From an uncultured Candidatus Saccharibacteria bacterium (GTDB lineage: Bacteria > Patescibacteriota > Minisyncoccia > Phycocordibacterales > DATDWN01), in assembly GCA_964603545.1 (NCBI GenBank), contig CAZRVD010000005.1, forward strand, positions 1-61,063: 61,063 bases of DNA, given 5' to 3'. The translations under genes were made by a program, and so were the position numbers. The notes under the pieces were generated by a model. The model was not told the origin of the DNA. It ran no database searches and saw only the letters and a list, made by a program, of their open reading frames with translations. Below are positions 16,363 through 16,750 of the stretch, piece after piece; position 1 is the stretch's first letter, and each line of letters starts with the position of its first letter.

Positions 16363-16490
16363 TGTGCCGAGACCCAGGGTTGGTCACAGGTTTTGAGTTC
16401 ACCGTCGTTCACTCAAACCTGCGACCCCGCCTCACGTTTTATTTCTGCTGAAATAAAAACCGTTCCGGCTTTCGACCCCGGGCTTAAAAG
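16363..16490 (-). repeat. structured repeat copy A (tRNA-Phe trailer) ending in an 18-nt duplicate of the tRNA-Phe 3' end
   Basis: 16363-16380 is identical to 16542-16559 (TGTGCCGAGACCCAGGGT). Core read on the minus strand: GAGGCGGGGTCGC-hairpin-GTGACCA (16430->16381). Confidence 0.7.
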
Positions 16491-16516
16491 CTTTGCTTTT
16501 ATTCTCGTCAACTAAT

Positions 16517-16541
16517 AATACTCCTTACGGAGTATTTTTAT
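16517..16541. terminator. hairpin plus T/A runs just 3' of tRNA-Phe
   Basis: AATACTCC-TTAC-GGAGTATT flanked by T-rich (plus strand) and A/T-rich (minus strand) tracts. Confidence 0.5.
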
Positions 16542-16543
16542 TG

Positions 16544-16616
16544 TGCCGAGACCCAGGGTCGAACTGGGGACCTATTCCTCTTCAGGGAAGCGCTCTACCA
16601 ACTGAGCTATCTCGGC
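16544..16616 (-). tRNA. tRNA-Phe (anticodon GAA), no encoded CCA
   Basis: Minus-strand fold: GCCGAGA TA GCTC AGTTGGTA GAGC G CTTCC CTGAAGA GGAAT AGGTC CCCAG TTCGACC CTGGG TCTCGGC A (73 nt). Confidence 0.92.
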
Positions 16617-16631
16617 ATGATATTAAATTTT

Positions 16632-16750
16632 AGCCAGTTGGGACCTGCTGGTCACAAATAATTTTCTGATGAAAATTCTCGCGACCCCACCTCGCCCCGT
16701 CGGGCTCCGGTCTTGCGTTTGGGTCCCAACCCAAACTCACTATCTCGGCA
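16632..16750 (-). repeat. structured repeat copy B (tRNA-Phe leader) beginning with an 11-nt duplicate of the tRNA-Phe 5' end
   Basis: 16740-16750 is identical to 16607-16617 (minus strand TGCCGAGATAG). Contains hairpins TTTGGGT-TGGG-ACCCAAA and GCCC-GACG-GGGC, then the core GAGGTGGGGTCGCG-hairpin-TTGTGACCA. Confidence 0.7.

Follow-up and report, generated by a model that had tools for sequence, protein, structure and literature searches.

Short folded repeats on both sides of a tRNA-Phe gene, probable members of a family of gene-end elements in Parcubacteria and related CPR bacteria

Introduction

The closest known counterparts of the repeats reported here are the RtT repeats of the Escherichia coli tyrT locus (RF00391), which have the same architecture built around a different core. 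In E. coli tyrT-tyrV, a 19-nt copy of the tRNA running from A58 to the CCA end occurs six times with a spacing of 178 nt. To our knowledge, RtT is limited to enterobacteria, and these 45-year-old repeats have so far been without comparative context. Direct repeats that run from within the T loop to the 3′ end of a tRNA gene are, in addition, the classic mark of tRNA-targeting integrases. The RtT RNA of E. coli is a stable RNA released from the tRNA operon transcript, according to the work of Bosl and Kersten (1991) as cited in PMC3318445.

Here, we describe a tRNA-Phe locus in a stretch of 61,063 nt of DNA, called the window below. The gene is flanked on both sides by repeats of a CPR family that is undescribed, very common and tightly folded; the literature search found no account of such elements in CPR bacteria.

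Results

Structure of the tRNA-Phe Locus

Read in the direction of the tRNA, the locus contains the following features, given in window coordinates.

About 16760-16787, minus strand: ancestral promoter-like sequence TTGCAA...TAGTAT, adjoining the outer 5′ copy
16740-16750, minus strand: outer 5′ copy TGCCGAGATAG, read as the original 5′ end of tRNA-Phe (exact 11-mer; relatives L002-L004)
16617-16739, minus strand: element B, the 5′-side version (covariance-model match, 83.5 bits; fold z = -5.0)
16627-16655, minus strand: promoter-like GTGACC-17-TAAAAT at the 3′ end of B, of putative function (consensus scan only)
16543/16544-16616, minus strand: tRNA-Phe(GAA), intact, CCA unencoded (ARAGORN; Rfam tRNA, 66.3 bits)
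16537-16559, minus strand: S1, inner copy of the 23-nt direct repeat (22 of 23 nt as in 16358-16380)
16517-16536, minus strand: hairpin x, AATACTCC-GTAA-GGAGTATT (read from the sequence)
16471-16511, minus strand: antisense arm (AS) of element A (sequence comparison; pairs with S2 in the MFE fold)
16381-16475, minus strand: core of element A (P2 and P3, swapped-tip variant), ending in ...CCTGTGACCA (44.5 bits, E = 1e-8)
16358-16380, minus strand: S2, outer 3′ copy, read as the original 3′ end of tRNA-Phe with its trailer (exact 18-mer, followed by the terminator)
16330-16359, no strand assigned: ancestral bidirectional terminator AACAAAACCACTCAA/TTGAGTGGTTTTGTT (perfect 15-nt inverted repeat)

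The preliminary description had reported an 18-nt copy of the tRNA 3′ end and an 11-nt copy of its 5′ end lying outside two structured repeats, and both are exact matches that have no further occurrence in the window and recur in a second assembly. The 18-mer ACCCTGGGTCTCGGCACA has two exact matches (16363-16380 and 16542-16559) and none in 100 shuffles, and TGCCGAGATAG likewise has two (16740-16750 and 16607-16617) with none in the 100-shuffle control set. The 3′ repeat is in fact longer than described, with 22 of 23 nt shared between 16358-16380 and 16537-16559, the inner copy S1 extending from T-loop position 58 of tRNA-Phe to the 3′ end and 5 nt into the trailer. In the second assembly (Logan, run SRR8863434), window positions 12655-17181 are matched at 99.96% identity and the same duplications are present, so an assembly artefact, the danger named in the preliminary description, is excluded.

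Hairpin x forms the turn of an inverted repeat that links S1 to the antisense arm and is weakly terminator-like, being scored by the terminator scan for the plus strand only. The terminator at 16330-16359 is common to the tRNA-Phe side and the convergent hsp20 gene (15867-16319), and is homologous to the terminator that follows tRNA-Phe in the relatives L006, L008 and L010.

The flanking repeats are structured as had been proposed, with folds stronger than those of shuffled sequences for both spacer A (z = -6.5) and spacer B (z = -5.0). The antisense arm of A consists of TTGACGAGA, a degenerate copy of the 5′ acceptor strand of the tRNA, an additional hairpin AAAAGCAAAGCTTTT, and CCCGGGGTCGAA, which is the reverse complement of the T loop and the 3′ strand of the T stem with one mismatch. 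Element A has a closing helix of its own, whose 5′ strand reproduces the tRNA 5′ end in degenerate form. Pairing of this arm with S2 was stronger than in any of 200 shuffles in a duplex test (z = -3.3). An exact TGCCGAGA is present in L004 at the position equivalent to the antisense arm of A, and L004 also has a hairpin homologous to x with compensatory changes.

Element B consists of a P0 hairpin (GTTTGGG-TTGGGA-CCCAAAC), a junction GCAAG and a core of P2 and P3 at 16649-16718. Its ortholog in L002 is identical over the first 68 nt and has compensatory changes in P3, and the P0 hairpin covaries with that of L009. A closing stem of its own is predicted for B in the window, the 3′ strand of which is missing from the L002 ortholog. 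The outward-facing promoter-like site of B lies 11 nt upstream of tRNA-Phe, and L002 has TTGACC-18-TAAAAT where the window has GTGACC-17-TAAAAT; the GTGACC that ends the core could provide a -35 box for the sequence downstream of it.

Filled and Empty Sites in Relatives

Comparison of tRNA-Phe loci across relatives, a check proposed in the preliminary description, yielded both filled and empty sites. On the 3′ side, tRNA-Phe in L005-L008 and L010 leads directly into the terminator that follows S2 in the window, and on the 5′ side the homologous promoter of L003 and L004 stands directly upstream of tRNA-Phe with nothing inserted between them. L004, L009 and L011 have A-type elements but no B, copies of orthologous type lying downstream of tRNA-Phe in L009, L011 and L037, whilst B is found also in L002, together with the outer 5′ copy, and is missing from L003 and L004. 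The earlier claim that elements were inserted at both termini with the tRNA left intact is supported by these empty sites, and the comparison shows that A (about 16381-16536) and B (16617-16739) were inserted independently, one on each side of tRNA-Phe. The empty sites also show that the outer copies are the displaced original ends of the gene, the 5′ end behind the ancestral promoter and the 3′ end before the ancestral terminator. The hairpin between tRNA-Phe and A was not seen in the empty sites, so that the limits given for the inserted stretch are approximate. The tRNA-Phe gene of L027 carries a conventional 2.7-kb island with a 49-nt repeat. An assembly gap falls exactly at the tRNA-end repeats of L008.

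Other Copies in the Window

The window contains five copies in total (A-E), all situated at its three tRNAs, the three further copies being as follows.

17095-17255, minus strand: element C, downstream of tRNA-Arg(CCT) (17258-17330) (inverted repeats; shared 15-mer TTGGTCACAGGTTTT)
58887-58990 (core 58887-58981), minus strand: element D, upstream of tRNA-Ile on the opposite strand (38.6 bits; fold z = -4.7)
59101-59215, plus strand: element E, downstream of tRNA-Ile(GAT) (59024-59100) (covariance-model match, 85.8 bits)

That A and B share their core with copies at other tRNAs, as had been noticed from the letters alone, is confirmed by covariance-model matches at tRNA-Ile and by the degenerate copy downstream of tRNA-Arg. 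In element C, a terminator hairpin (17226-17255) precedes a 22-nt arm (17204-17225) that is antisense to the 3′ part of tRNA-Arg, and a degenerate, enlarged core terminating in CCTGTGACCA, which the search with the core model left unmatched; a promoter scan found a promoter-like GTGACC-17-TATAAT (17074-17102) pointing at an 88-aa ORF. Element D is bounded by a 7-8-nt direct repeat, (C)ATGAGCC. In element E, a terminator hairpin is followed by CTGGTGCG, antisense to the tRNA 3′ end CGCACCAG, and by the core at 59139-59207.

Distribution and Architecture of the Family

A search of 1.3 Mb with a covariance model of the core, as recommended in the preliminary description, gave 39 matches. Of the 26 strong ones, about 22 follow a same-strand tRNA at a distance of 10-210 nt, a zone that makes up only about 2% of the sequence searched. 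The core is present in at least 120 metagenome contigs, with 81 of 122 metagenome cores downstream of a tRNA and 15 isotypes represented, and in 23 metagenome copies the 12-37 nt after the core are tRNA sequence from position 57 onwards. Gene ends are preferred, tRNA 3′ ends above all, and the same design was found at the 3′ end of a protein gene, at 5S rRNA and in frame inside tsaD, where the reading frame in L031, L062 and L037 stays open across a core copy that may point either way; the tsaD of the window has no core. A partial tRNA copy flanks 29 of the 247 tRNAs in the loci examined.

The usual order of a unit is the gene end (S1), a hairpin that is often a terminator, an antisense copy (AS), the core and an exact sense copy (S2). 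The core, 70-100 nt long, has a GAAAG junction, a hairpin P2 interrupted by a GGA/GA internal loop, and P3, a long hairpin of the form GGGUCG...A...GUGACC. At tRNAs, S2 extends from T-loop position 57 to the gene end or terminator or a few nt beyond, and pairs with AS to close the core into a three-way junction, so that tRNA copies resemble an acceptor/T-stem minihelix with the core in place of the T loop. This closing helix is present in most copies, its acceptor part often being degenerate. The junction points are fixed at the complement of T54, the antisense strand terminating in the T-loop complement (..TCGAA), and at R57. The length of the duplication is not constant, being 7 nt in D, 11 in B and 23 in A and exceeding 40 nt in L117 and L187, and the left ends, comprising hairpin x and the arm, also vary between copies. 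The tRNA and the element are usually separated by a terminator, and in tandem arrays the S copies are successively decayed.

In an alignment fitted to the model, 96.4% of cells are paired and 21 of 23 pairs have double (compensatory) changes, with a conserved G.U at P3 pair 5 in 27 of 32 sequences; none of the shuffled and slid alignment controls came near the observed core pairing. The covariation indicates that the core is a folded single strand, RNA or ssDNA, and not as a double-stranded site for a protein. Identical or near-identical cores were found at different isotypes, each with arms matching the local tRNA. Core identity is 0.777 within and 0.774 between isotypes, a difference reached in 196 of 500 permutations, and isotype-specific lineages, each with its own arm, are rejected since the cores do not cluster by tRNA isotype.

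A search of 16200-17450 against Rfam 15 brought only the tRNAs to the gathering threshold, the other matches being weak and fitting chance, with no family for A, B or C at E ≤ 10. Judged by eye on element order and size, the core does not fit hammerhead, HDV-like, twister or hatchet ribozymes, group I introns (P1/IGS), T-boxes, the P4 motif of RNase P (GAAAGUCCGG vs. GAAAGCCGGAG), retron msr/msd or IS110 bridge RNA. A flip/flop as in AAV ITRs was also rejected, for the hairpin tips (the GACG loop and the UUCAGCAGAA loop) exchange places between P2 and P3 but both keep their sense sequence, so the swap is no inversion.

Discussion

Origin of the Elements

Taking the window and its relatives together, we consider A and B to be, more probably than not, independent members of a large family of short, strongly folded repeats at gene ends in Parcubacteria and related CPR bacteria. 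Each insertion would duplicate the gene end and leave a complete gene, and would be harmless for that reason. At tRNA-Phe, one event per side would have left the old ends (16358-16380 and 16740-16750) as fossils outside the intact gene. The element would be non-autonomous and of the copy-and-paste kind, its arms being made from the local target at every insertion, and the zig-zag of sense, turn, antisense, core and sense is how an unfolded hairpin-capped or snap-back copy of a gene 3′ end might be expected to look. Against this picture, many copies have a perfect S2 but an imperfect AS, with the opposite in others, so that if both arms arose in one step, later decay or selection against perfect palindromes would be needed. 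By analogy with the RtT RNA of E. coli, a copy may be co-transcribed with the tRNA and, because it has a tRNA-like end, excised by tRNA-processing enzymes. An origin of S2 from mature tRNA at the RNA level is rejected, as S2 includes genomic trailer and has no CCA where the gene has none, and so is BstBI-like cutting at TTCGAA, because many target T loops differ from that sequence.

Of the other readings, the one that survives best, which we regard as possible but unlikely, holds that the repeats are host RNA genes, that is, an old, vertically inherited, RtT-like small RNA in each tRNA operon, with its tRNA-like end held identical to the adjacent tRNA by selection for a role such as RNase P/RNase Z processing, CCA addition or acting as a decoy, and with cores homogenized by gene conversion. 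Gene conversion among old, vertically inherited copies, and not recent movement, could account for the near-identical cores seen at different tRNAs within a genome, and the exact identity of S2 with the tRNA could be maintained by selection, pointing to function instead of youth. The strong, strand-specific covariation, the orientation of nearly all copies as the tRNA, the often exact match of S2 to the tRNA and the compensatory differences between paired copies of one genome (L022, L029) agree with this reading, as does the processing of RtT into a genuine RNA in E. coli (Bosl and Kersten 1991, as cited in PMC3318445). However, the elements are patchily present in close relatives, and some copies lie within tsaD (pointing either way), at the ends of protein genes or against the direction of tRNA-Ile. 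Many copies are decayed, many loci have heterogeneous tandem arrays, a terminator usually stands between tRNA and element, and the closing helix often lacks conservation in its acceptor part, all of which speak against a host gene maintained for its RNA.

More tentatively, and with a low expectation of being right, one may regard the repeats as a new kind of mobile element in which the core is the active part and the arms are self-made, with E. coli RtT and the CPR family as two branches of one old, unrecognized class of elements templated by tRNA ends. The 3′ end of a transcript, a tRNA or another, would then be copied into cDNA or DNA as a hairpin or snap-back capped by the core, the copied stretch running from T-loop position 57 to the termination point and being pasted back at the same gene, possibly with an RNA-level activity such as self-processing or priming via the tRNA-like end.

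It is improbable that the repeats are scars of integrase-mediated islands or prophages whose attP matched the tRNA end and from which nearly all DNA has since been deleted. The direct repeats from the T loop to the 3′ end, the conventional island at tRNA-Phe in L027 and a large serine recombinase gene in the window (2-1720), 14 kb away and the sole recombinase found by Pfam among the first 20 of the 49 window ORFs, would suit such a history. Nevertheless, every unit is tiny (spacings of 133 and 179 nt), the same conserved, covarying folded core recurs across 15 tRNA isotypes, and the antisense arm would be superfluous in an att site. The variable repeat length, from 7 to more than 40 nt, and the presence of the same design at protein-gene ends and inside tsaD argue in the same direction. 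Neither an integrase in the element nor an autonomous partner was found: the 179-nt insert has no ORF, the scan of viral contigs for the core gave no match, and the L027 island has neither core nor recombinase.

Still less probable is a passive origin by replication or repair at heavily transcribed tRNA genes, with tandem inversion duplications arising by template switching at terminator and T-arm palindromes and no dedicated element involved. The sense-antisense-sense order with hairpins at both turns is the layout of a tandem inversion duplication, and the duplication takes in the terminator in L108, L110 and L188; against this, the second turn always bears the same foreign conserved core of 70-100 nt, missing from empty sites, and the junctions occupy constant positions (R57 and the complement of T54).

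The shell of the preliminary description, in which the outer copies close one transcript of about 390 nt as an acceptor-like helix around B, tRNA-Phe and A to give a functional nested tRNA-like particle, is the least credible reading: the copies are indeed complementary and paired in the MFE fold of 16360-16752 (393 nt), and read-through of hairpin x, a weak terminator in the tRNA direction, is possible, but that fold pairs them only with the real tRNA unfolded, A and B are found separately in relatives, A has its own closing helix and B a predicted one, the copies line up as old gene ends with the ancestral promoter and terminator, hairpin x and then the strong terminator lie within and at the end of the supposed transcript, and a paired 5′ and 3′ shell occurs at no other locus among more than 200 examined. 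The complementarity arises because the outer copies reproduce the two strands of one acceptor stem.

Significance

The family explains the partial tRNA copies that flank CPR tRNA genes and gives warning to annotators and assemblers, and it adds an abundant, strongly covarying RNA or ssDNA structure, missing from Rfam, in at least 120 metagenome contigs. Set beside the E. coli tyrT/RtT repeats, it makes constant features visible, namely the junction at T-loop positions 54/57, the antisense arm and GAGAA/UCGAA. If the repeats are mobile, arms made from the local target would represent an unusual mechanism, and if they are functional, they would constitute a widespread partner RNA of tRNA operons in minimal-genome bacteria.

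Comparison with Known Systems

Among tRNA-like minihelix mimics, such as the tRNA-like domain of tmRNA, viral TLS and mascRNA, element A is comparable in that its helix, with strands GACGAGA (5′) and UCUCGGC (3′) plus CCCGGGGU/ACCCUGGG, is modeled to stack like an acceptor/T-arm, and in that it terminates in the discriminator region of the tRNA. The CPR family differs from these mimics in having a three-way junction in place of the T loop and an acceptor part that is often degenerate, with any processing or charging being putative.

Like Rickettsia palindromic elements and MITEs, the CPR repeats are short, highly structured sequences that code for nothing and occur many times in a genome, and the in-frame copies in the protein gene tsaD are a trait of the Rickettsia type. 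However, unlike in MITEs, neither constant terminal inverted repeats nor a target duplication of fixed length was found, and the arms derived from the local target and the strong preference for tRNA 3′ ends set the family apart from both groups.

With tRNA-targeting integrative elements (attL/attR, T-loop sublocation), the family shares a direct repeat that starts in the T loop, stops at the 3′ end and restores a complete tRNA, as at tRNA-Phe, where the gene is regenerated with a repeat of 22 of 23 nt and L008 and L010 have empty sites. In both, serial insertions stack downstream with older copies more decayed. In contrast to those elements, the CPR units are 100-180 nt long and gene-free, carry an antisense arm and a folded core, vary in repeat length and also use targets other than tRNAs.

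The likeness is greatest to RtT of E. coli tyrT-tyrV (RF00391; rttR; 178-bp repeats), for in both the unit lies directly downstream of a tRNA on the same strand and terminates in an exact copy of the tRNA 3′ part starting in the T loop, the copy of A in the window being 18 nt exact from position 58, downstream of tRNA-Phe. The Rfam consensus of RtT has a closing helix of an antisense strand, GgGaaGGAU, with the copy AUCCuuCcC, and AS and S2 form such a helix of antisense strand and tRNA-end copy in the window and in relatives. GAGAA comes after the 5′ strand in RtT and in many CPR copies alike, in both the acceptor 3′ strand remains as a tail, and both are tandemly repeated. The cores, however, are different: cmscan gave no match to RF00391 in 16200-17450 at E ≤ 10, whereas the same Rfam library recovered four RtT units at 133-137 bits in E. 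coli, and the CPR core model scored at most 4.7 bits on the E. coli locus. In the E. coli K-12 locus examined, RtT was confined to the tyrT-tyrV operon, whereas the CPR family extends to at least 15 isotypes, to the 5′ side of tRNAs, to protein-gene ends and 5S rRNA, and to the inside of an ORF.

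The tRNA-Phe locus and its duplicated ends

The window has a G+C content of 37%. Parcubacteria/Paceibacteria MAGs, fetched via the ValRS gene next to the locus, are its nearest relatives. The preliminary description had placed tRNA-Phe between folded spacers and duplicated gene ends, and this was borne out: two repeated words, listed below, occur exactly twice each in the window and in none of 100 shuffles, and the spacers fold better than shuffles with z = -6.5 (element A, 3' of the tRNA) and z = -5.0 (element B, 5' of it). The full extent of the 3' repeat is 22/23 nt, including 5 nt of trailer. 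The duplicated blocks are not an assembly artefact, as a second, independent assembly agrees with 99.96% identity over the locus.

16543/16544-16616, minus strand, tRNA-Phe(GAA)
16363-16380 and 16542-16559, the two copies of the 18-mer ACCCTGGGTCTCGGCACA
16740-16750 and 16607-16617, the two copies of the 11-mer TGCCGAGATAG

Elsewhere in the window, a large serine recombinase (572-aa ORF with a resolvase N-terminal domain, 2-1720, minus strand) adjoins a LOOT RNA (Rfam RF03000, 72 bits, 2153-2272, plus strand) and is followed by a 933-aa DUF4365 protein; this could be a mobile region. A 1406-aa ORF (8462-12682, minus strand), probably a repetitive surface protein, has a run of Gly codons and an internal duplication of ~620 nt (~84% identity).

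The outer copies are the original gene ends

The gene order ValRS - PrsW - Hsp20 - tRNA-Phe - 88-aa ORF - tRNA-Arg is kept in dozens of relatives. Directly 3' of tRNA-Phe, the related loci L005-L008 and L010 carry the terminator AAACCACTCAAT(T/C)GAGTGGTTT, whose homologue in the window (16330-16359) lies after the outer 3' copy, not after the tRNA. Immediately 5' of the tRNA, L003 and L004 carry the promoter-like TTGCAAAAAG...TAGTAATAT, which in the window and L002 lies 5' of the outer 5' copy, followed by element B. Because relatives show promoter and terminator directly at the tRNA, the outer copies are, on this sequence comparison, the original ends of the tRNA-Phe gene. About 179 nt were gained 3' and 133 nt 5' of it, each with a duplicated gene end that keeps the tRNA whole. 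Element B is present in L002, and L009, L011 and L004 (partial) carry A-type elements but no B, so that two events are seen rather than one structure. Thus, of the earlier reading, insertion at both termini with the tRNA kept holds, while the ~390-nt tRNA-like shell closed by the complementary outer copies is not supported, since these copies match ancestral promoter and terminator positions and A does not depend on B. In L004, the segment with tRNA-Phe and the 88-aa ORF (9010-9385) is inverted relative to the window, with breakpoints in what is left of element A and in the stretch following tRNA-Arg, beside inverted copies of GCTTTTTTCATTT.

A common core with a one-strand fold

Each of the window's five structured spacers (A and B; C, behind tRNA-Arg; D and E, flanking tRNA-Ile) contains the same core, with the following parts:

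junction, GAAAG or GCAAG
hairpin P2, with a conserved GGA/GA internal loop
linker between P2 and P3, 1-2 nt
long hairpin P3, GGGUCG...bulged A...YGUGACC

Across 39 aligned core copies, in an alignment that was fitted to the model, 96.4% of cells were paired, and in 21 of the 23 core pairs both partners had changed. One G.U pair is conserved, and shuffled and slid controls came nowhere near. Covariation and the conserved G.U pair show the fold to be that of one strand (RNA or single-stranded DNA), and a double-stranded protein site is ruled out on the same grounds. In different copies, P2 and P3 exchange their hairpin tips (window 16381-16475 vs 16649-16718; also L009, L037, L007, L013 and L052). 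One tip is a GACG(G) loop carried by a G+C stem, the other an A+T hairpin of the TTTTCAGCAGAAAA type; both retain their sense sequence, and the P2 and P3 bases are unchanged.

Anatomy of the units

The usual order is tRNA (S1) with trailer, hairpin x, antisense copy (AS), core and sense copy (S2). Hairpin x is a clear terminator in many units. AS is the reverse complement of the T loop and of the 3' strands of acceptor and T stem, and terminates in ...TCGAA or GAGAA; S2 is an exact tRNA copy from R57 onward, and AS/S2 pairing closes the core. Among the matches listed, S2 is 12-37 nt long in 23 metagenome copies, and in metagenome copies it ends 0-18 nt past the gene, sometimes including the terminator. 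As the genomic trailer is present and CCA absent, S2 was copied from DNA or a primary transcript, not from mature tRNA.

Element A, with a degenerate tRNA 5' end TTGACGAGA (exact, TGCCGAGA, in L004) and a closing helix of CCCGGGGTCGAA (5' strand) and ACCCTGGGTCTCGGC (3' strand), follows this plan, and A alone is therefore an acceptor/T-stem minihelix in which the core replaces the T loop. In C and E the antisense arm is present but S2 is largely or wholly missing; D, which has a 7-8-nt repeat, is on the opposite strand. B is the 5'-side version, in which positions 1-10 are copied and a P0 hairpin (UUGGGA loop) and the core follow; this version is also present at other tRNAs (L189, L122, L115 and L146).

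Other core types fill the same position. M2 comprises (G/A)ACC, a long hairpin, GGTGTAC, NG and a short hairpin with a conserved TGTAA loop, and is placed between the antisense arm and a T-loop-to-3'-end copy, at times in tandem with the first type:

L009 ~10255-10360, M2 core
L010 ~2063-2200, M2 core
L003 ~4493-4600, M2 core
L007 ~9593-9720, M2 core
L048 ~12631-12760, M2 core
also in L008, L045 and L022

Further types, neither the first nor M2, were seen in L022, L029 and L013. Partial-tRNA arrays with hairpin spacers of ~40-110 nt and no recognised core lie in L019 (11250-11620), L011 (6495-6750), L043 (14915-14970) and L027 (15065-15105); examples are tRNA-Gly 3' halves from the anticodon loop and tRNA-Phe 5' fragments such as GCCGAGGTAGCTGTTTTGGTAG.

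Distribution of the family

The elements form an abundant, undescribed, RtT-like repeat family, of which the tRNA-Phe locus is an instructive example. A covariance model run on the window together with 80 related loci (1.3 Mb) recovered 39 core copies. Of the 26 strong hits, about 22 share their strand with a tRNA gene and start 10-210 nt downstream of it, in a zone that makes up ~2% of the DNA scanned. When the filters were turned off, the window held only four strong copies, all at tRNAs; element C is too degenerate to score, and an Rfam search of the window locus gave no match for the elements. A strict pattern for one core variant matched at least 120 metagenome contigs and, among viral contigs, none. 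Among the matches listed, 81 of 122 cores have a same-strand tRNA within 400 nt upstream, and these tRNAs cover 15 isotypes. Of the 247 tRNA genes in the loci, 29 are followed 50-430 nt downstream by a sense copy (≥12 nt) of their 3' end, and ~15 by an antisense copy at 30-80 nt. Such repeats can break assemblies: in L008 (~1900-2190), a run of N falls exactly between repeated tRNA-Val 3'-end copies.

Origin of the arms and possible mechanism

Core similarity does not follow tRNA isotype (identity 0.777 within vs 0.774 between isotypes, a difference reached in 196 of 500 permutations). Identical cores occur at Thr and Trp, or at Pro, Gly, Val and Arg, with arms matching each local tRNA. The same design is found at protein-gene 3' ends with direct repeats >40 nt (L117, L160 and L187) and at 5S rRNA (L136). 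Core copies with their own palindromic arms also lie in frame inside tsaD (Kae1), in either orientation, between ...ISKLAE and FPRPM, adding ~35-40 residues; the window's own tsaD (7185-8390) has no core insert.

L031 9415-9477, plus strand, core inside tsaD
L062 9310-9365, plus strand, core inside tsaD
L037 9457-9515, minus strand, core inside tsaD
L047 9450-9506, minus strand, core inside tsaD

Arrays of several units, with distal S copies more decayed, were observed in L045, L009, L066 and L188. The lack of isotype clustering, the local arms, the non-tRNA targets and the arrays together point to elements that insert repeatedly and still do so, their arms being derived from the target. Less probably, the copies are old and fixed, their cores homogenised by gene conversion; paired copies in L022 and L029 differ by compensatory changes. 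Some copies have a perfect S2 with an imperfect AS, and others the reverse.

The sense - turn - antisense - core - sense string would arise if a hairpin with a stem copied from the gene's 3' end and the core as its loop were unfolded into the chromosome. This might proceed by snap-back copying, of the kind known from second-strand cDNA synthesis or fold-back replication, or through a rod-like single-stranded circle (S-x-AS-core) recombining with the gene. No mobilising enzyme is offered by the insert or the surrounding genes (Pfam on 20 of the 49 window ORFs). A conventional 2.7-kb island behind tRNA-Phe in L027 (12297-14989), flanked by a 49-nt direct repeat from anticodon arm to CCA, carries TPR and small hypothetical ORFs and lacks both a recombinase gene and the core.

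The conserved GTGACC end of the core could be part of an outward promoter in B and C: it lies 17 nt before TAAAAT in B, a site 11 nt before tRNA-Phe, and 17 nt before TATAAT in C, ahead of the 88-aa ORF; the L002 counterpart reads TTGACC-18-TAAAAT. By the E. coli precedent, a unit may be co-transcribed and released because of its tRNA-like end.

Comparison with E. coli RtT

In the E. coli K-12 tyrT-tyrV-rttR locus, the 19-mer AATCCTTCCCCCACCACCA (tRNA-Tyr, A58 to CCA) occurs six times at 178-nt spacing, and Rfam RtT (RF00391) matched four units. In L203 (NC_000913 1286300-1288100), each RtT unit holds, besides the 19-nt tRNA end and the antisense strand GGGGAAGGAT, a degenerate copy of the variable/T-arm region in sense orientation (CTTCGACCAAGGTTCGACTC vs ACTTCGAAGGTTCGAATCC). 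RtT RNA is produced from the tyrT operon by processing, and its role is unclear (Bosl and Kersten 1991, cited in PMC3318445; bioRxiv 10.1101/2024.07.17.603846). The RF00391 consensus is closed by GgGaaGGAU/AUCCuuCcC, continues with GAGAA and ends in ccaCCACCA. The CPR elements have the architecture, T-loop boundary and junction motif in common with RtT; however, their core differs. They are not members of RF00391 but are the same kind of element as RtT, far more numerous and more varied.
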